Virus record (IMG/VR): IMGVR_UViG_3300000227_000004
Span: 55,274 to 75,273 of that record
Reading direction: 5' to 3' (one strand)
Source of the DNA: an uncultured virus (IMG/VR IMGVR_UViG_3300000227_000004)
Taxonomy: Duplodnaviria; Heunggongvirae; Uroviricota; Caudoviricetes
DNA length: 20,000 nt
This document shows, in pieces, positions 1 through 20,000 of the stretch. The position numbers were made by a program, and so were the translations under genes. Within the stretch, counting starts at the first letter, position 1. Every line of letters begins with the position of its first letter. A model generated the notes under the pieces. It saw nothing but the letters and a program-made list of their open reading frames with translations. It did no database searches and had not been told where the DNA came from.

Positions 1-827
1 AGCGCATCAGTGTCGTTTAGTACGTGGTTACTGGCTGTAAGGGGTTGTTCTATCCGACCCCAACATGTGCTTGAAAAGAAGTATGTCAATGAATCTGACA
101 GGATTCTAGTAAGGTTAAATTTTGCAAAGTTGTTGTTATTTATGATGTTTTCCGTAAAGCTGACACTTTTACTATCCCCAGTTGAATACTGCATGCCTTC
201 TGGGTATAACAAATCGGCCATAGATGTTACCGGGCAAATAAATATAAAGGGCTGTCTAGTAATAAACGGGGCTAACATAGTTGCGAGGCCAGTATCTATA
301 TTTCCCTCCAGGATTATCTCAGTTCCATCAAGCCACTTGCTCCCTGCCGCCTTCGTTTGCTCTAGCTCCGAGAGGGGGGATGGGTTATCTCTGGATGATG
401 AAGATCCACGTCGTTCTGGGGGAGAGCATAGAACAGATCCTGCGGGAGATATGAGCTTATATGTCAGCACCATACCTTTCCCAAAGTACTTTTTTACTAT
501 TTTCTCACTCTCCCGCTGTAATATGTCCATGTCCCTTGCCAGTGGTGCAGACGCGGCCTCCCCAGATTCTATCTCAGTATCTCTATACAATGATATTGCA
601 AGCCCCTTACCGCACTGAGTAATAAAGAAGTGACCTTCTTCTGCAGGACGAGAGTATGCTGCTATCGCCTCTTTGAACGAAGATTGGAAGGAGTAAGCAG
701 TGCTGCATCCCTGCAGTGATTGGTGCTTAGCCGTGAATATATTTCTATCGTAATAGACAGAATTTAAAACCTCGTTTCTGTTTAGTGCGACGGTTTTAAG
801 GTCATCATTTGTTAGTATCTTTTTCAT
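1..827 (-). CDS. Hypothetical protein, running off the left window edge (>=275 aa); absent from the ORF track
   Basis: Manual translation: ATG at 827 with AAGGAG 7 nt upstream, MKKILTNDDLKTVALNRNEVLNSVYYDRNIF..., open to position 1. Overlaps the end of the upstream 186-aa gene. Confidence 0.8.
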   Translation of the reverse strand, partial: MKKILTNDDLKTVALNRNEVLNSVYYDRNIFTAKHQSLQGCSTAYSFQSSFKEAIAAYSRPAEEGHFFITQCGKGLAISLYRDTEIESGEAASAPLARDMDILQRESEKIVKKYFGKGMVLTYKLISPAGSVLCSPPERRGSSSSRDNPSPLSELEQTKAAGSKWLDGTEIILEGNIDTGLATMLAPFITRQPFIFICPVTSMADLLYPEGMQYSTGDSKSVSFTENIINNNNFAKFNLTRILSDSLTYFFSSTCWGRIEQPLTASNHVLNDTDA

Positions 828-9065: not shown

Positions 9066-9690
9066 TTTCGTTTGTTATTATTTTTGATAAATCCGCCAAT
9101 CCGATTTCTAACGGAAAATACGTGTTTACTCCGGTCCCCAACTGTTTTGGGTCTGTCGGTCTGGCGTAATTTATGGCTGCGTATAGGCATGCCTCTGGGT
9201 ATCTATCTATGTCCGTCCTTATTATGTATTTCAATGCGGGATTCGCTTCCCACATTTCCCTAGGTAACTGTGCTGGGTGTTTGACACCAACCCTGGACGC
9301 TCTGTATACTTCCCTCAGCACTATTGCCCCTGTGTTGGTGTATATTCCTAGACACTTTAACAGACCGATTACTAAGGCTATATAAGTCAGTGGATCAGTT
9401 TTTGCTTTCACTGTGGTTAACTTTGCACACATGACTGCATCTTCAGAAATAGGTATCGAATAATAATTTCTGAAGAAATTCAGATGGACTAGTAGCAGCT
9501 TTTTAAAAGTAAATCGTTTTATTCCAAAAAGCCTGACTAATTCCACTATGCACATTGGGGAAGTGCTCTCGGCCACATACTTGGCAAGAGTTTCTATGGA
9601 CTTGTCTAAACTGGATCTGCTTAGATCGGTGGCATACTTAATTTTGTATCTTCCATTAGTTAACTTCCGAATCTCTTCCGAATATATCAT
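9010..9690 (-). CDS. Hypothetical protein (226 aa) directly upstream of the RT
   Basis: GAGGAG RBS before ATG 9690. Overlaps the primase-helicase end and the RT start. No family recognised. Confidence 0.75.
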   Translation of the reverse strand: MIYSEEIRKLTNGRYKIKYATDLSRSSLDKSIETLAKYVAESTSPMCIVELVRLFGIKRFTFKKLLLVHLNFFRNYYSIPISEDAVMCAKLTTVKAKTDPLTYIALVIGLLKCLGIYTNTGAIVLREVYRASRVGVKHPAQLPREMWEANPALKYIIRTDIDRYPEACLYAAINYARPTDPKQLGTGVNTYFPLEIGLADLSKIITNESEKENGTNNDSRNKTISI

Positions 9691-12600
9691 CTATACTCTC
9701 CTCAATTGGCTTGACTTCTCCGGAAAAGATTATATCGTTGGACGTAATACCAGACAGCTTTCTGTCACGTAAGTCTCTGGCTAATTTGTACAGCTTGGCA
9801 GTAGGTTTATATGTGCCTCCAGTATACTCTGTGTCTAGCATATTATCTGCGGCCAGAAGTTGCAGGACTTTAATTACGTCATTTCTGTTGAGTTTAAGGT
9901 GCATTGCAAGTTCTTCGGCCCTTATCCTGTTAACTTGATTTATGTGAAAAATTATTTCGGTAATGCTCACGGTAGTTGGTATCTGGTGACGTGCCAGCAC
10001 TCTTGAAAAATACTGAAGCCAATCGGCAGGAACTTCTACTTTTCTACGGCATTCTGCTGCCTCTTCATCTAATGCTACTGATTTTGAACCATAAGTCCCG
10101 TCCAGCAGGGCATACGCATTTTCTACGTCTTCAATTGTCACAGTTACTTTAACAAAATCGTCACTTCTCATGTTAAACATCGCCATGGATGCACTAATTC
10201 TAGCAACTTTCTCATGAGTATCCGTGGAAATTAGTGGCAGTGTCGTAGCTGCAGCGTAGTACTTATCCATTAGAACCATGGCTTTTTTTAATATTTCCCG
10301 GGTAACTTCCGGAGGAAATATTATTTCTGCGGGGCTCCTGGTCCAGGACCACAAAAGCCCCGTCCTAACTACGTCCTGCGGCACAGTGAGTTTAACATCT
10401 GTCACTTCTTTTAAGATTACACTGGCGTCAACTTCATCTTTGAAGAAGAACTGAAATATATCAAATCTTCTAGCATCAGGCGTTTCCATAATCTCCATTA
10501 TTGCTTGACAGCCACGTTTATAAGTATCCATTGATAGGCCTTTTGCCGGATTTGCCGAAGCGATTAAACGTACTCGGCAAGCTTTAGACCCTCGCTTAAT
10601 TTTTGTAATCATGGCTCTGCCGGTAGACCTTATTTCTCTTAAAGCACTTAAGGCGAGTGTGTTACTTTGCAGCTTTTCCATTTCATCGATGAAAACGATT
10701 GTTTTGTCACTAATAGGCAACAGCCCCCAGGATATATATTGGTGGTTGTCATACTTATCCACGCCCCCAATTAAGCCGGCAGTAGTAGCATTCCCCCCGC
10801 TTACGTGGTTATACGTCCCAAGGAATTTCAAAATATGTTCTGGCATTTTTGATTTGCCCTGTGAGGAATCTCCGATGAAGCATGTCTCCACCCAGCCTCT
10901 GTCTAGCATACGGCCGTTAAACTCAATCTGTAGTGGACTGAATAGGGTGAGCATTACAGTGAGTGCCTCTCTGTATCTACCCCTAATGCCGCAAACCTGG
11001 TCTGCCATTGAGTATACGAGCTCCTGCTTATCCAGAGCCTTGTAAGCTTTCAGCTGCTCCAGCTGTTCTGGAGTAGGATTGAATTGGTCTAAATTACCTA
11101 ACATTCGTTCTACTTTAGAGAAGACGAAAGTAGTTTTTTGATCTTTCGGATGTGGATGGACTCGGCCAATTCCAATATAGTCAGTCGACACATTTATGCT
11201 GTGGCCATTAAAATATGAATAATATGTCCTAGGCTCTATGGAGAACCGGCTTTTAAATAGCATGTTTCTCATAACTTCATCCGCAGATGATATCATGATG
11301 GGCTGTACATGGTGGTGGGATTTTTCAGTCATTTTTAGAAAAGCCGGCTTTACACACGGTATTCTAGCAAATCCCATCAGAACCCTCTTGTTGTTTGCCT
11401 CAGGGATACCTATACATGAGATCAGGTCTTTCCCATCAGACGAAACTACATATTTAGTCTCACCCGATTTATTATTAAAATCGCAGATGACTTTATTGCC
11501 AGTCCTGGCTGGGCACCCTTCCGAACAAGTAAATATTACTTCTTTAGGAACATGGTATGAGCCACCAACTAATGAGTCAGCTTTGAATGGGACTGATATT
11601 GACTTACCTATTACTTGATACTGCTCAACTTGCTCAACCAGTTCAAGCCTTTGATCTACCTTTGATTTAGGGTATGCGAGTTTTATGGGGGACAAGCCTC
11701 CCCGGTCTATGATCTCAGCACAATTCTTGGCGCAAATATGGATGTTTTGCATTCTGGCGCAAGACATCGGAATGTACTTCTTCTGATCTCTCGCATGCCG
11801 TATCATCTTTTCAGTTTCTTCTTTGCTGTAGTCAGAGCAATTAGCGATAATCTCATGAAGTTTTTCAGCACCGCTCTCACCAAAATGTATGCAAAAAGTC
11901 ATCAGACAGACTCGCTCTTCGTGTAGTAAATGATGCTCTTTCTGTGCCTTGTTAATTAATCTTTTCAGCGCATTGCATCCGCTCAGCATGCTACTAATAG
12001 AAGCACACGTAGGGGGCTTGGATAAGTCCTTTATCTCTCCTTCTGGAGAATAAGTTCCCACGTTTAATTGTATATTGTTTATTTTGTCTAGGAGCTCTCC
12101 AATGTCATCCATCGAAAGCTTTCGTGTCTTTTTTAGGTAATCAAATTGAGATAGGGGTGGCTTATTCGCATCCTGGAACAGATCTACGAAATACCCTCGT
12201 TTACCAGTAACTCGGTGCACGCCTAGTGGGAGCTTTATCAAGCTTCCATATGCTCCCCCTGACGCCATCTGTTTTGGAAAAACCTCTAGAGATTTAGGTA
12301 GTTTTGCTTGAGTTTTTATAATAGACGCGAAGTTGTACACGGTCTTGACAGGTATGGGTCTGTCGAAAAATATGTCTAAATGCCAGCCTTTACTGCCTGA
12401 GAAAGAAACTAAATACATGTCGTTGGTTATGCCAACAGAATTCAAGTAAATAATAAAGTCTCTAACTTTGTTTTCTAGCACTAACAAAGCCTGGCTAAAC
12501 GCCTCATCTCTAGCCTTAGAGTCCGTTATCTGCTCGATCCCCCGTCGGTCTTCGATTCCAAGGTCGAAGTCAAAGGTGCAATGCAGGCAGCAATCTTTAC

Positions 12601-12841
12601 TGGGCTCTTCAAGTATAATCGTGTAAACACCAAGAGTTCGGCTCCCATCTAAATGACTAATTAGAGCCTCATCGAAATCTGCGTTCGGGCCTTCTATTTT
12701 ATTGTACCTGGATTTGTTATTCTCGTTAGGGGGGAGTTGCTCGGCGTAGCAGTGCTTATTTGTTTTATAAAAGCTGCTGAATAGCGAAACATTTTCCGGA
12801 GTTAAATCTAGCTGCTCATAAAGAACGGTACCATCCGTCAT
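9656..12841 (-). CDS. Primase-helicase fusion: AEP primase, PriL-like Fe-S domain, MCM-type AAA+ helicase and C-terminal winged helix
   Basis: AEP motifs FDFD, SFSGSKGWH and IKLPLGVH. Cys pattern C...HLLHEER...Y.PMSC..MQNIHIC..NC..SPI like the PriL C-terminal domain. MCM Walker A GDSSQGKS, Walker B IDEMEK, LIASANP and R-finger RRFD. AGGAG RBS. Confidence 0.88.
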   Translation of the reverse strand: MTDGTVLYEQLDLTPENVSLFSSFYKTNKHCYAEQLPPNENNKSRYNKIEGPNADFDEALISHLDGSRTLGVYTIILEEPSKDCCLHCTFDFDLGIEDRRGIEQITDSKARDEAFSQALLVLENKVRDFIIYLNSVGITNDMYLVSFSGSKGWHLDIFFDRPIPVKTVYNFASIIKTQAKLPKSLEVFPKQMASGGAYGSLIKLPLGVHRVTGKRGYFVDLFQDANKPPLSQFDYLKKTRKLSMDDIGELLDKINNIQLNVGTYSPEGEIKDLSKPPTCASISSMLSGCNALKRLINKAQKEHHLLHEERVCLMTFCIHFGESGAEKLHEIIANCSDYSKEETEKMIRHARDQKKYIPMSCARMQNIHICAKNCAEIIDRGGLSPIKLAYPKSKVDQRLELVEQVEQYQVIGKSISVPFKADSLVGGSYHVPKEVIFTCSEGCPARTGNKVICDFNNKSGETKYVVSSDGKDLISCIGIPEANNKRVLMGFARIPCVKPAFLKMTEKSHHHVQPIMISSADEVMRNMLFKSRFSIEPRTYYSYFNGHSINVSTDYIGIGRVHPHPKDQKTTFVFSKVERMLGNLDQFNPTPEQLEQLKAYKALDKQELVYSMADQVCGIRGRYREALTVMLTLFSPLQIEFNGRMLDRGWVETCFIGDSSQGKSKMPEHILKFLGTYNHVSGGNATTAGLIGGVDKYDNHQYISWGLLPISDKTIVFIDEMEKLQSNTLALSALREIRSTGRAMITKIKRGSKACRVRLIASANPAKGLSMDTYKRGCQAIMEIMETPDARRFDIFQFFFKDEVDASVILKEVTDVKLTVPQDVVRTGLLWSWTRSPAEIIFPPEVTREILKKAMVLMDKYYAAATTLPLISTDTHEKVARISASMAMFNMRSDDFVKVTVTIEDVENAYALLDGTYGSKSVALDEEAAECRRKVEVPADWLQYFSRVLARHQIPTTVSITEIIFHINQVNRIRAEELAMHLKLNRNDVIKVLQLLAADNMLDTEYTGGTYKPTAKLYKLARDLRDRKLSGITSNDIIFSGEVKPIEESIDDIFGRDSEVN

Positions 12842-12882
12842 AAGACACTCCTGGTTGGAAAATAGTAAAAAAAATAAAATCG

Positions 12883-12914
12883 AAAAAAGGCCCCGGAACT
12901 AATCCGAGGCCTTT
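12883..12914 (-). terminator. Intrinsic terminator after the SSB-like gene
   Basis: Minus strand reads AGGCCTCGGA-TTAGT-TCCGGGGCCT followed by TTTTT and further T runs. Confidence 0.8.
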
Positions 12915-12920
12915 GTTAGC

Positions 12921-13790
12921 TTAAAAAGCAAGATCGTCCAGATCTGGATTATCCACAATCTCAGCATCCGAAACTGAAGCTTCTGGCTTAACACGTCCTG
13001 TAACTTTGTTAAACAGTGTTTTTTCCACTGGAGCAGTCTGATGTTTGCCAGATGTGCCGCTATTTTTAATAGAGTTAGCGGCATTCATTGCGCCGTAAAT
13101 GTTTTCAAAATATTTTAACAAATCTTTCTGTTCGCGCAGACGATTTTGAGCTTCTTTTGCAAGCTCGACCTTGCTTTCGGCAGTCAAGGGCGTGAAAGTA
13201 AACTCAAACATGGACCATTCAGAATTCCCATCTTTCTTAGATGAGAGCCTGATTGAAAAGTCGAATAAACACAGCGGTGACTTAGAGGCGCTCTTGAGCT
13301 CCTGGATCTTTTTATTAAAGGCACCGACGCTAGTCTGAGGAATTTTAAGCTCTACGGGTCTGTCAATTTTTGGAATTTTAATAAGAAGTCTGTGCGAAGA
13401 TGAGCACTCTCTGTACTTACCCTCACCCACGCGTTTGTCCTTCCACTCATGGTGTGGGCATGTTTCACAGCTTTCGAATTTTGAGGGTCTTCCATGGTTG
13501 ATAGCTACGCACACTGGTGCTTTGTTTTCATCCTCACCCTGGTCTTCCCGCTTTTCGTAGTATTCCATGAATGAGGCATGAGTGACAACCCAGCCCTTCA
13601 ATTCTTTCGTGACTGAGTCATCGGGTAAACTAAACGTCTGGTTGGAATGACCCACCTTCACTTTAGGGAACCTGTTGATTCTGGCACCAAAGGCCGCGAT
13701 GTCATGCTGGGCACTCTCTTCGATGAGGGCAGCGAGCTCCGGATTGTCTGTCAAAATACTGGCGTCAATTGTGGTAAGGTCGGTGTTCAT
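12921..13790 (-). CDS. Phage single-stranded DNA-binding / annealing-type protein (289 aa)
   Basis: Start reassigned to ATG 13790 (AGGAG RBS, ATGA overlap with the upstream stop). Acidic aromatic-ending tail DNPDLDDLAF, CxxC motif, and position between nuclease and primase-helicase. Confidence 0.65.
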   Translation of the reverse strand: MNTDLTTIDASILTDNPELAALIEESAQHDIAAFGARINRFPKVKVGHSNQTFSLPDDSVTKELKGWVVTHASFMEYYEKREDQGEDENKAPVCVAINHGRPSKFESCETCPHHEWKDKRVGEGKYRECSSSHRLLIKIPKIDRPVELKIPQTSVGAFNKKIQELKSASKSPLCLFDFSIRLSSKKDGNSEWSMFEFTFTPLTAESKVELAKEAQNRLREQKDLLKYFENIYGAMNAANSIKNSGTSGKHQTAPVEKTLFNKVTGRVKPEASVSDAEIVDNPDLDDLAF

Positions 13791-14686
13791 AAATCGTCTC
13801 CTGTTAAAAAATTTGGTTTGGGTTTTGATAATAGCATTTTTAGGTTCTCTTCGTCCAGGCAATATTCAGCATATTCACACGGGCAGTTGCCATTTCTGTA
13901 ATTCCTGCTGATTTTATTATTCCTAAGAATATCATCTACTAAGTCTATTCTTTCGAATAATTCTTTTTCTGCCGACTGGATTTCTTCTGGGGTAAACATG
14001 TATGAGTAAATTTTAAAATTCTTAGTTAGAATAAACTCATGTATCTCGTAAGACTCTATTATAATGTCAGTCTTTTGTTCTATGGCCTTTTTGTAAACCA
14101 GTAACTGTTGCTTGAATTCTTGCCTAAGCTTCATTTTATGGAACTTGTTACTTAATGGATCTTTAGGGTGGTCCTGCCCTGCGGTTTTAAAGTCGATCAG
14201 TCGTCTGTCATACCGCAAATCTAGCTGGCCTTTGAACTTCTTTTTTTTTATGATGATTTCATCATAAGTTTGTTCAGTGTCAATAGCCGCATCGTGTGTC
14301 TGATACTCAAAATTGTTAGCTAAAAAATCTCCCATACCAGTTATTAGGGCGGAATTACTTTCTAAAATCTCAGCTGACTGTTTCAAGACATCTTCATCAA
14401 TTAGTTCTTTCTTTTGTTTCTTGAAGAACTCTACTGCTTGATGAAGACATTCTGAAAATGTTTCTTCCGCACCTCTTGGTGCAGATTTGCTTTTGATTTT
14501 TAGAAAGTAATTCTCTAAAGCCTTGTGTATTATCTTACCTTTGGTTAGGGCAGGGGACTTACAATGAAAGGGGAGCCTTAGGATTGAGCCTAAGACCCCC
14601 TTCATTGAGCATGCCAGCATTGTAGACAGAAAAGATGGGGACATGTGCCCCCGCAATTCTAGGTTTAAAAACATAAATTCCTTCAT
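13787..14686 (-). CDS. PD-(D/E)XK exonuclease, Cas4/AddB/RecB-like, with probable Fe-S staple
   Basis: SPS...C, GKIIHKALE, KGQLD...LIDFKT, QLLVY and C-terminal CPCEYAEYC. Confidence 0.85.
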   Translation of the reverse strand: MKEFMFLNLELRGHMSPSFLSTMLACSMKGVLGSILRLPFHCKSPALTKGKIIHKALENYFLKIKSKSAPRGAEETFSECLHQAVEFFKKQKKELIDEDVLKQSAEILESNSALITGMGDFLANNFEYQTHDAAIDTEQTYDEIIIKKKKFKGQLDLRYDRRLIDFKTAGQDHPKDPLSNKFHKMKLRQEFKQQLLVYKKAIEQKTDIIIESYEIHEFILTKNFKIYSYMFTPEEIQSAEKELFERIDLVDDILRNNKISRNYRNGNCPCEYAEYCLDEENLKMLLSKPKPNFLTGDDL

Positions 14687-14865
14687 AAGCTACACCTTTA
14701 CAATGTGTTTGTTTTGATTGTGCAACGTTGTCCTCCCAATATGGATTTAGGGCGATTTGGTCCTGAGATGTTTTGATCCTGGTAGTCTTGTTCTCCTTCC
14801 ACAGTCGGGTGACTAATAATTACCTTTTATTATTAGTCATCCGACTGTGGAGGAGAACAAACAAG

Positions 14866-14904
14866 TTTTAAAGTCATATGCGTCGATGACAACGCTAAGT
14901 TCTA
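14866..14904. repeat. Conserved repeat copy 1
   Basis: TTTTAAAGTCATATGCGTCGATGACAACGCTAAGTTCTA; 36/39 identical to copy 3. Confidence 0.95.
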
Positions 14905-15089
14905 AAGTGTGTATATATTGTCTTTCACTACATGTGCGTGTCTCGTGGTTCCAATTTTGTTTTTATTCAAACGTCTACCTGGATGGTCCAACCGTCGCTG
15001 CTGTCATGTTGGTCGTACTTCTCGGATCGTGATCCAGAGGACGATCAACATGACAGCAGCGGAGGTTTGGGCCATCGTATATTATGTTT

Positions 15090-15118
15090 ATATGCGTCGA
15101 TGGCAACGCTAAGTCCTA
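15090..15118. repeat. Conserved repeat copy 2 (29-nt core)
   Basis: ATATGCGTCGATGGCAACGCTAAGTCCTA; 27/29 identical to the copy 1 core. Similarity to copy 3 extends ~11 nt further (TGTGAAAGATT vs TTTGTAAGATT). Confidence 0.95.
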
Positions 15119-15268
15119 TGTGAAAGATTTTTTTGTTAAAAAAAATCGGCAATCTTACCCTGTTCTGGCCGGCCTTACACTTTGCGCGGGGCAGACCTTA
15201 CATCTGATTGGGGTCTACCTTAAGCCTGTATGGGGCAGCGGTTGCCCCAGGTTGGGATTGCCGATTAA

Positions 15269-15307
15269 TTTTAAAGTCATATGCGTCGATGAGAACGCTA
15301 TGTCCTA
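15269..15307. repeat. Conserved repeat copy 3
   Basis: TTTTAAAGTCATATGCGTCGATGAGAACGCTATGTCCTA; unit periods are 214 and 189 nt. Confidence 0.95.
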
Positions 15308-15349
15308 TTTGTAAGATTACTGTCCTTATAACGTATTTTTCCGTTTTTT

Positions 15350-17107
15350 TTATGCTGGCCCTTCTGAGAACCTTCTTGACCAAAATTCTGTCTTTCTAAC
15401 TTTGTTCCAGCTTGATAATGGGACGAAGTACCCAATTATTCTTGTCGTGTAATCTACTATTTTCCCTTTGCAAATCGGGCATTCACTGTGTTTTCCTATA
15501 GTATTATGCTGATTCTCGCATTGAGCATACACATGTGTCGGTGCGAAATGAGTCATCCCTGCCTTTGCGGCCATTTTTATCAATGAAATCATGCTTTTGT
15601 TCGTCAGTTGTTTTTCTATATTCAGATGAGTAATCGCACCCCCCGTAAAGTATTCATCCAGCTCTCCTGCGTATTTCACTCTGTCTAATAGATCAACATC
15701 TTCCCAAAGTGGTATATACTGATTGCTTAATATCTGGAGGCCCACTTCCTGCCCTAACTCTGCCGCAGCACTTTCCCCAGGTATCTGCTCTATGTTTATT
15801 GGCATTTTTAGACACTTAGACATGCATGATACCGAATCTTTTATTATGAGCATGATGCTCTTTATTTCCTCGATTATCTCTACTAATTTTGGCGATTGAA
15901 CACCTTTCTTACTTAGGGATATTATTGCCCCTTCCCAGATGCCTATAATACCTACAGTGGAGAAAAAATTCTGATCTAGGTTCTCCCAATTATTCTTAAA
16001 GAACTTTAAAAACTTCCCAGACTTATGCGACACTAAACTTCTTAAAAGTTCTCTATGGGTCTTAAGCACTTTTATGGCGGTGTTTGTATACTCCTCTAAA
16101 GATTTCCCGTCTGAGATTATTTTCGGGATATTTAAAGTAACGACTCTGTGAGAGCCTATTCTGACCCCCCCATTGCCAAAAGAGTCTACGCCTGCCATGT
16201 CCATAAGTAAATCTAAATCATTTGACATTCGGCAACATGATGCGAACTTCCTGGCATCTTTAGAGATGTATATGTTAAGTCTACCGGTTTTTAGGTAAGA
16301 GGCTATCTCATGGAGCCACTCTTCGTCTAGAATTTCTCTTGTTGGTGAGAGGGCTATATTGGCCGTAGTTACGGGGAATCTAAAAGGCTTGCCCTTTATC
16401 CCTTTAGCGAATTCTTCAAGAAAGACTTTCTGTAGCGCTTTTATAATTAGTATCTGCTCTGGCGTTTGCTTGAATACTACATCAAGCGTCGGAGCGTCCG
16501 CGATAGTCACATTTACAAACGGAGATTGGCCTGATGGCCTCACTTTTCTGTGGAAGGTAAAGATCATTGATTGGTATACATTAGCAATGTGGTATTTCTC
16601 TTGATTAACATGCTCGACAGATTTAAAAAACTCAGCGGAGTTTACAAACAAGTCTGGGATTGCTATTGCGCCGGCATGATCTTGTGCCATCTCTAGAACT
16701 AGGTCTATGACCTGCATAACATAGCTGTCAAATCTCTTGGGCCTGTCTGATGGGTAATCCTCTACATACTGGAGTCCCTCAAGTAGTATTCTACCAGTAG
16801 AAGTGGCATAGCAATATGGTATGATGCCCTTAGTTATGTCATGAAAATAGAAATATTTAGGGGCGGCCGGCCCGGACATGTGTGCTTCTTCACGCCAGAA
16901 TTTATCTAACTCCTCACGAGTCATGTGCTCTGAAAGATTATCATACATCATTTTTACGGTCAGGTCTGCAAGACCTTTTGCTGCGTAGTCCATGGCAAAG
17001 TTACTGAAAGAAAAGTTAGCGGCATTGGCATTTTTATCGTAAGCTATTTCACCTGGCTCTTCAGTCATGTGTTTCTGGAACATTTGGTAAGATCTATCAT
17101 CTAACAT
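15350..17107 (-). CDS. nrdD: Anaerobic (class III) ribonucleoside-triphosphate reductase, no ATP-cone
   Basis: YFHD, PYC, QSPFVN, active-site ASCCR, EQIPGES, GGAITH, Zn site C..H...CPIC and glycyl-radical loop TRIIGYF. Adjacent activase. Confidence 0.95.
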   Translation of the reverse strand: MLDDRSYQMFQKHMTEEPGEIAYDKNANAANFSFSNFAMDYAAKGLADLTVKMMYDNLSEHMTREELDKFWREEAHMSGPAAPKYFYFHDITKGIIPYCYATSTGRILLEGLQYVEDYPSDRPKRFDSYVMQVIDLVLEMAQDHAGAIAIPDLFVNSAEFFKSVEHVNQEKYHIANVYQSMIFTFHRKVRPSGQSPFVNVTIADAPTLDVVFKQTPEQILIIKALQKVFLEEFAKGIKGKPFRFPVTTANIALSPTREILDEEWLHEIASYLKTGRLNIYISKDARKFASCCRMSNDLDLLMDMAGVDSFGNGGVRIGSHRVVTLNIPKIISDGKSLEEYTNTAIKVLKTHRELLRSLVSHKSGKFLKFFKNNWENLDQNFFSTVGIIGIWEGAIISLSKKGVQSPKLVEIIEEIKSIMLIIKDSVSCMSKCLKMPINIEQIPGESAAAELGQEVGLQILSNQYIPLWEDVDLLDRVKYAGELDEYFTGGAITHLNIEKQLTNKSMISLIKMAAKAGMTHFAPTHVYAQCENQHNTIGKHSECPICKGKIVDYTTRIIGYFVPLSSWNKVRKTEFWSRRFSEGPA

Positions 17108-17700
17108 TTTTTTATCTCCTGTAAGTTTTTATCTTCAAATTCTGGTCGATATTGTCCAATAATTACATCTGTGATAGTTGCATGGCCGTCCTTGGCTAAC
17201 GAGAGTTGCTTTACCACTAACCCATCAGAGTTACGTAGTCTGCCCCACAGAATTGCGTCTATTTCCTTAAGTCTGCACTTGTCCTCACCCCCCTCTTCAG
17301 AGAAATCGGCCCCCGTATACCAAATGATCTTAACATAGGGGCATAGAAGCTTAATTTTATGCACTAACGCTAGCCAATCTTCTAACTGAAAGAAAAAATC
17401 CCCCCCAGAACCCACAACAGTCAGGTCATGGCAGGAGACTTTTTTTAAAAATTCAGATTTAGCTTTTATTATCTCTATGATTGCCTCTTCATGCAAACCA
17501 GTGTTATCATCATTTAATTCAAAGCATTGTAGCGATTTATTATGACAGCCGGGACAGGCCCACTTGCATCCTACTGCATAAAGAACTAGGGAGGGGTTTT
17601 CGAAAACTATGTCATCACTGAACGAGCACGATACGGTTGCTACTCTTAGCATAGGGCTGCTCCTGAAAGATCTCTTATGTTTGTCGGGAATAGAAAGCAT
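17101..17700 (-). CDS. nrdG: Class III RNR activase, radical SAM (start may be ATG 17652)
   Basis: GCKWACPGCHN (CxxxCxxC), SGGD, IWYTG; overlaps the nrdD start. Confidence 0.9.
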   Translation of the reverse strand: MLSIPDKHKRSFRSSPMLRVATVSCSFSDDIVFENPSLVLYAVGCKWACPGCHNKSLQCFELNDDNTGLHEEAIIEIIKAKSEFLKKVSCHDLTVVGSGGDFFFQLEDWLALVHKIKLLCPYVKIIWYTGADFSEEGGEDKCRLKEIDAILWGRLRNSDGLVVKQLSLAKDGHATITDVIIGQYRPEFEDKNLQEIKKC

Positions 17701-19749: not shown

Positions 19750-20000
19750 ATTTTCAACCCTTCTGCCGCTTCGAGCGCGGCGAAGACTGCTTCTGTAAGC
19801 ATATCCCTGCAAATCTCTGCCGTGTGCTCGCTGTTTTTTGTATATGCATCGGCGGCATAGTCGACGTCACGAGCAGCAGCGGCGGTATGGGCACAGGCAG
19901 CAGCGGCGGTATGGGCACAGGCAGCAGCGGCGGCATAGGTGGCGGCACAGGAAACAGCGGCGGCATAGGTGGCGGCGGTAGCAGCGGCAGCATAGGCAGC
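19746..20000 (-). CDS. C-terminal part of an Ala-rich repeat phage protein (continues past the right window edge)
   Basis: Manual translation AAYAAAATAATYAAAVSCAATYAAAAACAHTAAAACAHTAAAARDVDYAADAYTKNSEHTAEICRDMLTEAVFAALEAAEGLKI*. The stop overlaps the next ATG. GCN codon periodicity supports this frame over the Pro-rich one. Confidence 0.75.
   Translation of the reverse strand, partial: AAYAAAATAATYAAAVSCAATYAAAAACAHTAAAACAHTAAAARDVDYAADAYTKNSEHTAEICRDMLTEAVFAALEAAEGLKI
19873..19980. repeat. Intragenic tandem repeats (2 x 24 bp exact, then 2 x 30 bp imperfect)
   Basis: GCAGCAGCGGCGGTATGGGCACAG at 19873-19896 and 19897-19920; related 30-bp units at 19921-19950 and 19951-19980. Confidence 0.9.

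Follow-up and report, generated by a model that had tools for sequence, protein, structure and literature searches.

A 663-nt non-coding gap in the genome of an uncultured phage carries a tandem array in which a short, conserved hairpin element alternates with long and rapidly changing self-pairing segments. The gap lies at 14687-15349 of what we call the window, that is, the whole 20,000-nt stretch analyzed here, which is the final 20 kb of the 75,273-base virus record IMGVR_UViG_3300000227_000004 (judged 41% complete, with 59% of the genome missing). The original prediction, made from the letters of this stretch, described three repeats with a period of about 200 nt, each preceded by a different long hairpin. 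This hairpin-repeat array is real, and its repeat is also conserved in a second phage, which goes beyond what was first noticed. Judging from the comparison of the two phages, a core of ~25 nt is under purifying selection, is confined to a single locus, and always has the orientation of the neighboring genes, while the segments around it are free to change. The constant part fits a reiterated cis-acting recognition hairpin, and the array looks more like some control or start signal than like a carrier of variable RNA cargo.

The three repeats were recovered with the period first described. The core pattern occurs at 14876, 15090, and 15279 (+ strand) with no mismatch, and it was not matched once in 200 dinucleotide shuffles. 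The repeats can be extended to 51 nt and are spaced 214 and 189 nt apart; relative to the middle copy, the copies at 14865-14915, 15079-15129, and 15268-15318 show 67%, 100%, and 80% identity, so that 10 of the 51 positions differ between repeats 2 and 3. Neither a pattern search allowing up to two mismatches nor a covariance model detected the core anywhere else in the 75,273-base record. The inter-repeat segments (~160 to 190 nt) are self-pairing and, as had been claimed, a different long hairpin precedes each repeat on the + strand, ending 12 to 15 nt before the next core. The array comprises the following features:

14788-14860: hairpin 1, a near-perfect palindrome of ~32 bp with an 8-nt loop
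14865-14915, minus strand: repeat 1 (core 14876-14904; mini-hairpin 14880-14895)
14982-15076: hairpin 2, an imperfect palindrome of ~40 bp, paired up to a 4-nt tip
15079-15129, minus strand: repeat 2 (core 15090-15118; mini-hairpin 15094-15109)
15136-15274: hairpin 3, with an A-run, a stem, inner sub-hairpins with CCTTAnA...GGGG units, and a T-run on the minus strand
15268-15318, minus strand: repeat 3 (core 15279-15307; mini-hairpin 15283-15298), the first in the sense direction
15130-15318: a 189-nt unit (hairpin 3 plus repeat 3) absent in a co-existing phage variant
15325-15332, minus strand: promoter-like motif GTTATAAG, 24 nt upstream of the TAGCGT of the first repeat

The conserved core and its counterpart in a second phage

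The array is located between nrdD and an exonuclease gene. Among 5.8 billion proteins, only one is related to the exonuclease (42% identity), and it is encoded on a 6.2-kb metagenome contig, L004, which shares the gene order of the window: nrdD, a gap, the exonuclease, a homologue of a 313-amino-acid (313-aa) protein, and a primase-helicase. The two phages are 43% identical in the exonuclease, 43% in the 313-aa protein, and 62% in the primase-helicase. The gap of L004 (~875 nt) contains four copies of a 25-nt repeat, which is the reverse complement of the window repeat, at spacings of 274, 243, and 206 nt; the segments between them measure 113 to 249 nt. All seven copies are oriented as their flanking genes. 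When the two gaps were compared by BLAST, they had in common only the core and one 19-nt stretch around GTTATAAG, and no conserved peptide was found between them (best E value, 0.053 over 16 aa). Selection on the core is indicated by this contrast: the ~25-nt core is roughly 90% alike in phages whose proteins are 43 to 62% identical and whose intervening sequence has diverged past recognition. Segments of the array match neither the rest of the contig nor L004; with no such match in the 75 kb examined or in L004, antisense targeting of the phage's own genes and template/variable repeat pairs of the diversity-generating retroelement (DGR) type are unsupported.

The comparison comprises two genomes and seven units. 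Protein-guided scans (with the nuclease, NrdD, P0002, and the primase and nuclease alignments) returned only L004 and an unrelated sequence, L019. The latter, a distant exonuclease-bearing viral contig, has a structured non-coding stretch of ~570 nt at 650-1220 with a 22-nt inverted repeat; this stretch is unlike the array, and L019 carries no such array. DNA pattern scans gave no locus and then five single matches in viral_contigs, and five single matches in genome_contigs, none of them arrayed. A covariance model, one of the checks initially suggested, separates the family: built from the seven copies, it recovers them at 41.9 to 49.1 bits, versus at most 23.9 bits for the lone pattern matches, and neither the remainder of the contig nor 13 other sources contained anything that scored higher than this. 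The BLAST search of the repeat that had also been proposed found no match in phage and plasmid records.

Read on the gene strand, the ~25-nt core consists of a flank (AGRACTWA), a 6-bp stem (GCGTYG/CGACGC) with a loop of 3 to 4 nt, and a final AT; all seven units read AGRACTWAGCGTYG, loop, CGACGCAT. Loop length is 4 nt in the window, except for 6 nt in the first unit, where the innermost stem pair is lost, and 3 nt in L004. On the 5' side of the stem, 8 to 9 nt are conserved, compared with only 2 nt on the 3' side. Stem positions pair on the gene strand in 41 of 42 cases, five of which are G.U or G.T pairs that would be A.C mismatches on the other strand; these amount to about three independent wobble events, a small sample. 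The asymmetry, the difference in loop length, and the wobble pairs speak for recognition of a hairpin in the single-stranded gene strand (RNA or DNA) over binding of duplex DNA by a symmetric dimer. The core is the only strongly constrained non-coding sequence seen in the replication block.

Long hairpins and strain variation

The three long hairpins of the window have the dimensions first described. The arms of hairpin 1 (14798-14820/14829-14851) are 23 nt long and match at 96% around the 8-nt loop, those of hairpin 2 (14990-15019/15038-15067) are 30 nt long and match at 87%, and those of hairpin 3 (15136-15162/15248-15274) are 27 nt long and match at 81%, with a perfect 11-bp stem at 15144-15154/15256-15266. 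Hairpin 3 also has a run of eight T and the A-run/stem/T-run layout of a two-way intrinsic terminator. Folding of both strands, as had been recommended, confirmed the strength of these structures: compared with 20 shuffles per strand, the 650-nt region gave z-scores of -11.0 on the minus strand and -11.1 on the + strand, values too similar for fold energies to favor either strand. For single segments, z-scores ranged from -3.9 to -8.4 in the window and from -0.5 to -3.7 in L004. Near the contig end, two 19-nt stretches (window ~19874-19892 and 19898-19916), 24 nt apart, are 89% like part of the hairpin-2 arm (BLAST E value, 1.3); this likeness is probably due to chance or to a short coding repeat.

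The organization of the segments is shared only in part by L004. A local hairpin follows soon after the core, in the gene direction, in five of the seven units: the three of the window, at a distance of 12 to 15 nt, and units B and C of L004, at 7 to 14 nt. In place of local hairpins, the dominant feature of L004 is a set of long-range arms that enclose core and segment; in two units, these arms are 24 and 19 nt long, 92% and 95% complementary, and 180 and 170 nt apart, a distance at which pairing would need a single-stranded state. We tested the 28 nt upstream of each core for pairing with the unit's own downstream region, against 300 shuffles of the 5' flank. None of the 300 shuffles was as stable for those two L004 units; the first and second window units gave values of 0.01 and 0.053, and the remaining three units were indistinguishable from chance (0.58, 0.12, and 0.28). 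The earlier statement that sequence varies under a constant structure and position is true inside the window, but only loosely so in the relative. What was called conserved structure thus reduces to the richness of every segment in inverted repeats.

To follow the array in its source, contigs from three DNA runs of one study were placed on 14300-15700. The depth of the phage is ~45, and the summed depth over the interior of hairpin 3 (~15142-15266) rises to 200 to 1400. This excess stems from short contigs that are 80 to 99% alike and have foreign flanks, some of them entering T-runs; hence, hairpin 3 is a member of a high-copy family of terminator-like palindromes dispersed in the source metagenome. 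The cores do not belong to this family, as their depth stays at the phage level (45 to 57). An exact 19-nt pattern of the family gave no locus in viral_contigs, no match was found in the four genomes reached via loci, and a search of 401 genomes of one phylum gave two marginal matches of 21 to 29 nt, which we take as chance.

The same contigs revealed a variant of the array. In a 21,369-nt contig, the tail of repeat 2 joins directly to the sequence after repeat 3, so that exactly the 189-nt unit at 15130-15318 is absent, while a 135-nt contig (depth 36) supports the three-unit form; both forms join the same downstream contig. Since repeats 2 and 3 are unlike at 10 of 51 positions, the two-unit form is best read as a recent deletion between direct repeats and not as the state before an insertion. 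Apart from this, the variant contig differs from the window at four positions in 830 nt, all in unit 2 (14976, 15036, 15055, and 15056). Three of the four fall within hairpin 2 and the other, 14976, just outside it; two of the differences break pairs, and together the four weaken hairpin 2 from -72.3 to -66.4 kcal/mol (+ strand).

These observations bear on two ideas. First, the array had been proposed to be modular, with a constant handle and a variable cargo. The constant element beside variable, strongly folding segments stands; informative cargo is not supported, given that hairpin 3 is a copy of a dispersed repeat, that a variant lacks exactly that unit, and that the strain differences cluster in unit 2, where two of them break pairs. 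Because the segments are unconserved, one unit is deleted in the variant, and strain differences cluster in unit 2, the variable segments look dispensable, as interchangeable and partly selfish palindromic filler, and a sequence-specific cargo is unsupported. Second, the whole array could be a functionless intergenic mosaic of the BIME, NIME, or PeSL kind, in which palindromic, partly mobile elements and terminator cassettes accumulated between two operons and were reshuffled by recombination between direct repeats. The dispersed family represented by the hairpin-3 interior (summed depth of 200 to 1400 versus 45) agrees with this, as does a unit that is present or absent in the population with its junction at a repeat boundary; similar indels are caused by the PeSLs of T4-type phages (PMC4122927; PMC2839356). 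Yet the core is not dispersed, having a depth of 45 to 57 and no other copy in the contig, public collections yielded only single, non-arrayed pattern matches, and no open reading frames (ORFs) lie between the units, as they would in PeSL cassettes. Moreover, its locus, its orientation, and its 24-nt distance from GTTATAAG are all preserved between two phages whose non-coding DNA otherwise differs at nearly every base, which is the mark of a functional cis element. We consider a functionless mosaic improbable.

Gene context and candidate functions

Several features of the gap concern its transcription. The distance from GTTATAAG to TAGCGT is exactly 24 nt in both the window and L004. A more general form of the motif, YTATAAS (often GTTATAAG), is found 13 times in 4.5 kb of intergenic DNA versus 2.1 times expected, a six-fold excess, and its sites lie mostly 27 to 130 nt upstream of gene starts in the right orientation; examples are window 15325-15332 (-) and contig positions 48293 (-), 2600 (-), 5060 (+), and 11625 (+). 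From this distribution, YTATAAS is a candidate promoter element of the phage. In L004, its single intergenic copy on the gene strand is the one ahead of the array. The L004 gap contains no terminator-like site on the gene strand, which makes read-through from nrdD likely; in the window, the first terminator-like site after nrdD is hairpin 3. Transcription very probably crosses the gap in the gene direction, so that it would form either the 3' region of nrdD or an exonuclease operon leader.

Among the 19 gaps of at least 40 nt in a greedy ORF map of the contig, the array gap is the largest. It is part of a long minus-strand gene block that reads, in the order of transcription, nrdG, nrdD, the gap, the exonuclease, a 313-aa Pam3_Gp34-like protein, an AEP-primase/PriL/MCM-helicase fusion, a 226-aa protein, an 840-aa protein with a reverse transcriptase (RT) domain, a family-A DNA polymerase, and a helicase. 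The genes that enter the argument are:

15350-17107, minus strand: nrdD (anaerobic ribonucleotide reductase), upstream of the array by transcription; Pfam NRDD, E value 1e-67
13787-14686, minus strand: gene for a PD-(D/E)XK (Cas4-like, Cys-cluster) exonuclease, the first past the array; Pfam PDDEXK_1, E value 7.8e-12
12921-13862, minus strand: gene for the Pam3_Gp34-like protein of 313 aa, the second past the array, followed by an intrinsic terminator
9656-12841, minus strand: gene for the AEP primase/PriL-like/MCM helicase fusion, identified with Pfam and 62% identical in L004
6543-9065, minus strand: gene for the 840-aa protein with a C-terminal RT domain (YVDD), considered as a partner of the array, with no link found

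The exonuclease matches the PADLOC Cas4 profile (E value, 1.2e-5) and reaches 23.4 bits with TIGR00372 versus a cut-off of 65; its Cys residues are invariant in the alignment with the L004 homologue. A canonical intrinsic terminator (GC hairpin plus T-run) is present at 12842-12920 (-), between the 313-aa gene and the primase-helicase gene, so the exonuclease and 313-aa genes may constitute their own two-gene unit behind the array. The primase-helicase fusion is a candidate replication initiator.

Our best reading, although possible rather than probable, is that the array is a co-transcribed leader in which factor-bound hairpins control passage or processing at barrier hairpins and thereby gate the downstream genes. 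The gap would be a modular non-coding region with three modules here, two in the variant, and four in the relative, each module consisting of the ~25-nt conserved element followed, within ~5 to 20 nt on the gene strand, by a fast-evolving self-pairing segment. The conserved element would be the recognition hairpin of a nucleic-acid-binding factor of the phage or its host, acting on the single-stranded sense strand, most likely nascent RNA. The long hairpins could then serve as generic barriers of the terminator or double-strand-RNase type, with the factor controlling passage or cleavage, and reiteration would tighten the gate before the exonuclease/annealase (perhaps primase) genes. In favor of this reading are selection on the core alone, the asymmetric recognition that looks single-stranded, the shared direction of all seven copies and the flanking genes, the fixed distance from GTTATAAG together with likely read-through from nrdD, the hairpins that follow five of seven cores, the enclosing arms of L004, the filler-like behavior of the variable parts, and the terminator layout of hairpin 3.

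A number of observations weigh against such a leader. We identified no candidate binding protein. A sense-strand U-run is lacking in hairpins 1 and 2; the L004 segments are not terminator-like and, taken alone, are barely more stable than shuffles. The long stems of the window contain five G.T versus zero A.C on the + strand, which is the antisense strand, and the L004 arms conflict with this strand bias, having two wobbles versus one on the L004 + strand, which is the sense strand. In the core, no stem pair has changed on both sides, which suggests that the stem sequence itself is read and also fits recognition of double-stranded DNA; with an invariant stem sequence and a small sample, duplex recognition may apply as well. 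Finally, the sample comprises only two genomes with seven units, of which the three from the window may carry a single ancestral variant. The ranking of mechanisms is correspondingly soft.

Nearly as likely as a leader, and equally tentative in our view, is an origin of replication, an alternative that had been raised at the outset. According to it, the phage initiator, probably the AEP-primase/MCM-helicase fusion, would bind or load at the dyad GCGTYG-N3/4-CGACGC; the palindromes between copies would aid melting or offer single-stranded priming hairpins, and transcription from the upstream motif may activate the site. The location agrees with this, as the array fills the largest gap of the contig, within the replication/recombination block and 1.85 kb upstream of the primase-helicase gene, and so does a motif confined to one locus and conserved in two phages. 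Hairpins 1 and 2 are near-perfect palindromes paired to the tip, there are A/T runs, the number of units is flexible, and the ensemble resembles the origins of lambda, herpes simplex virus (HSV), and pRN1. Yet iterons usually form tight clusters, quite unlike the spacing of 189 to 274 bp seen here; conservation is uneven on the two sides of the dyad, and its half-sites are 1 bp farther apart in one phage than in the other. The intervening DNA of L004 has a G+C content of 0.49 to 0.54 versus 0.43 for the genome, unlike an unwinding element, and arms 170 to 180 nt apart cannot extrude from duplex DNA. Cumulative GC skew turns near 17,500, where the gene strand switches, and not at the array, although this measure is confounded by gene orientation.

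A different role in transcription, which we consider unlikely, would make the array a series of tandem small transcription units, each element being a polymerase start signal that gives rise to short hairpin RNAs or primers. The signal could be a sense promoter with an embedded stem-loop, or an N4-like hairpin on a sense template that fires antisense. On the gene strand, hexamers resembling those of sigma-70 promoters are present inside repeats 2 and 3 (TTGCCA-16-TAATAT and TTCTCA-16-TAAAAT, 9 of 12 positions each) and, by eye, in repeat 1 (TTGTCA-16-TAAAAC), and transcription is predicted to begin with the first base of each hairpin. None of the four L004 copies scans as sigma-70-like, though, and the -10-like part lies outside the conserved core. 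The geometry of the element resembles that of N4 early promoters (PMC4496689). A sense-strand template would yield + strand RNAs, which would reconcile the G.T pairs of the mini-hairpin with the 5:0 G.U bias of the long stems, and a T-rich stretch follows each hairpin on the + strand; antisense products, however, lead into no gene. The 5' arms of L004 are upstream of the element and hence outside an RNA started there. Moreover, a promoter class should recur, and no copy was found in the remaining 75 kb.

As for the enzyme, the phage encodes its own RNA polymerase, in the form of a beta-like subunit (Rpb2 domains) fused to a beta'-like subunit (Rpb1 domains) in a 2036-aa ORF outside the window (L010:5133-11243, +), which heads the structural-gene block. 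A polymerase of the single-subunit N4/T7 type was not detected in the 41% of the genome at hand, where the fused multisubunit type is the only RNA polymerase. There is also an orphan ORF of 1940 aa (L012:10278-16100, -; contig 50278-56100), whose N terminus lies at window 3-827 (-); Pfam, PHROGs, NCBIfam, and PDB sequences gave no hit for it, and a word search of 5.8 billion proteins turned up no relative. At the start of the contig (L010:1-67), ~5.5 tandem copies of the 12-nt unit CGGAGCTGGTGC represent either a coding repeat running off the contig end or an assembly edge.

By analogy with N4 promoters or primase start signals, the element could also be an initiation signal that acts as a single-stranded hairpin on the gene strand, here in a phage with a fused multisubunit RNA polymerase and an AEP-primase/MCM helicase, an interpretation that strikes us as distinctly improbable. 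It would explain why G.T pairs of the mini-hairpin favor one strand and G.U pairs of the long stems the other. We give no better chance to its extension, in which each unit launches a short folded RNA or primer and the array is a new, reiterated, hairpin-dependent start site at a phage origin.

Lastly, the RT-domain protein raises the prospect of an RT-linked template or capture array, made of retron-like non-coding RNAs or of segments acquired via RT and the Cas4-like nuclease. Its gene, located between those of the primase-helicase and DNA polymerase A, belongs to the same strand block, and its best PADLOC matches are RT clades of the retron type (RT_VI; E value, 4.9e-16). In some units, the succession of a small hairpin, a long hairpin, and enclosing inverted repeats recalls the a2-msr-msd-a1 arrangement; one segment is related to DNA elsewhere in the sample, and the polymorphic unit adjoins a promoter-like "leader." Nevertheless, four genes and 5.6 kb separate the RT gene from the array, and the RT-domain protein scores 49.3 bits versus a cut-off of 235 with NCBIfam retron_St85_RT, so the array does not pair a retron-clade RT with an adjacent non-coding RNA. 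Enclosing arms comparable to retron a1/a2 beat 300 shuffles in two of seven units and end 5 to 16 nt before AGC, whereas in a retron the branching G directly follows the 5' arm. Repeat 3 has 10 differences in 51 positions, so unit 3 did not arise by recent duplication, and a deletion is the better reading of the variant; among 16 window ORFs there is no Cas1 or Cas2, and no segment matches the rest of the contig. We regard an RT-linked array as very remote. The RT-domain protein itself had 19 matches among 1.84 billion representatives in a full HMMER scan, mostly of 965 to 1197 aa with a C-terminal RT domain; no close relative appeared in a word-index search, and no family matched its N-terminal ~580 aa.

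The phage belongs to a lineage that has almost no relatives in public data and that combines a fused RNA polymerase, an AEP-MCM primase-helicase, and a large RT-domain protein. Should the array prove to be an ordinary leader or origin, the result is a useful annotation and nothing further. Because the element is the only non-coding sequence of the replication block seen to be strongly constrained, it probably marks the point at which a key factor, be it a regulator, an initiator, or a polymerase, engages the genome. Identifying the partner of the element and the strand on which it acts would reveal how replication is switched on or started in such phages. If it is truly recognized as a single-stranded hairpin, hairpin-dependent initiation, mainly known from N4, would extend to a different polymerase world.

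Comparison with known systems

The array is not a CRISPR, as originally stated: its segments, of ~160 to 190 nt in the window and 113 to 249 nt in L004, exceed the ~25 to 50 nt of CRISPR spacers and are self-pairing, and a Pfam scan of 16 window ORFs, in a contig 41% complete, found neither Cas1 nor Cas2. Nor does it correspond to a family in Rfam, a possibility that had been raised as a check. No match over the window reached the gathering score; at E values up to 10, there were only generic hairpin (miRNA-precursor) matches, with 13 to 36 bits versus cut-offs of 44 to 160, and L004 gave two weak, unrelated matches.

The nut sites and N-leader of phage lambda combine boxA and a boxB hairpin, followed by terminators and an RNase III hairpin. 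The array shares with them a short conserved linear motif beside a small hairpin, followed by strong hairpins, ahead of timed genes. In contrast to lambda, it has three to four tandem copies, and its loops are unconserved while the stem sequence is conserved. We identified no N-like or Nus-related protein, and action of the array at the RNA level is putative.

With respect to origins, the iterons of lambda are dyads, the HSV origins (oriS/oriL) combine binding boxes with long palindromes, and plasmid pRN1, which has an AEP primase-helicase, needs a stem-loop of ~100 nt. Like iteron or dyad origins, the array places a repeated dyad, long palindromes, and short A/T runs in a non-coding gap of a replication module; it departs from them in that its copies are ~200 bp apart, an atypical spacing, its conservation is asymmetric, and its half-site spacing is variable.

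Other likenesses involve shorter motifs and dispersed repeats. The CS-6 sequence of ssoA-type single-strand origins of rolling-circle plasmids, TAGCGT/A, sits in the terminal loop of a large hairpin (PMC4598088, PMC10378824, and PMC5703833). The array resembles ssoA in having a large hairpin region of variable sequence and the hexamer TAGCGT, found in six of seven cores, yet here the hexamer runs from the flank into the stem of a mini-hairpin distinct from the large one. The context in pE194 is also unlike that of the array, and we consider the match a coincidence. The GTAG and CGTC tags of REPs are unpaired end motifs of dispersed repeats and are inapplicable here. As in neisserial NIMEs and enterobacterial BIMEs (PMC3733652), a short conserved dyad alternates with longer variable repeats, at least one of which is dispersed; unlike theirs, the short repeat is specific to one locus and conserved across divergent genomes instead of being scattered in high copy. 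The high copy number of REP, BIME, and NIME elements was seen only for the hairpin-3 interior and not for the core, which has a depth of 45 to 57 and a single locus.

Closer parallels come from phages. The early promoters of the N4 virion RNA polymerase are three tandem elements of ~18 to 25 nt with a GC-rich stem, a 3-nt loop, and a one-sided flank, and they are recognized single-stranded, as a hairpin of the template strand (PMC4496689). In geometry alone, the array agrees with this plan, with a 6-bp stem, a 3- to 4-nt loop, a one-sided flank of 8 to 9 nt, and three or four tandem copies. Its loop is unconserved, and no genes lie downstream in the direction implied. The PeSLs of T4-type phages are conserved cassettes of a promoter and a stem-loop that produce indels such as the one found here (PMC4122927; PMC2839356). 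They are dispersed through hyperplastic regions and flank ORFan genes, whereas all copies of the array lie in one ORF-free gap with no conserved peptide. The promoter-like hexamers of the array, present by scan in two of the three window repeats and in none of the four of L004, are unconserved in the relative, and its variable part is a long hairpin and not a gene. What the two have in common is a composite stem-loop in or beside promoter-like hexamers, an intergenic location, and recombination indels between close relatives, and on these grounds PeSLs appear to be the nearest architectural analogue of the array among phage repeats.

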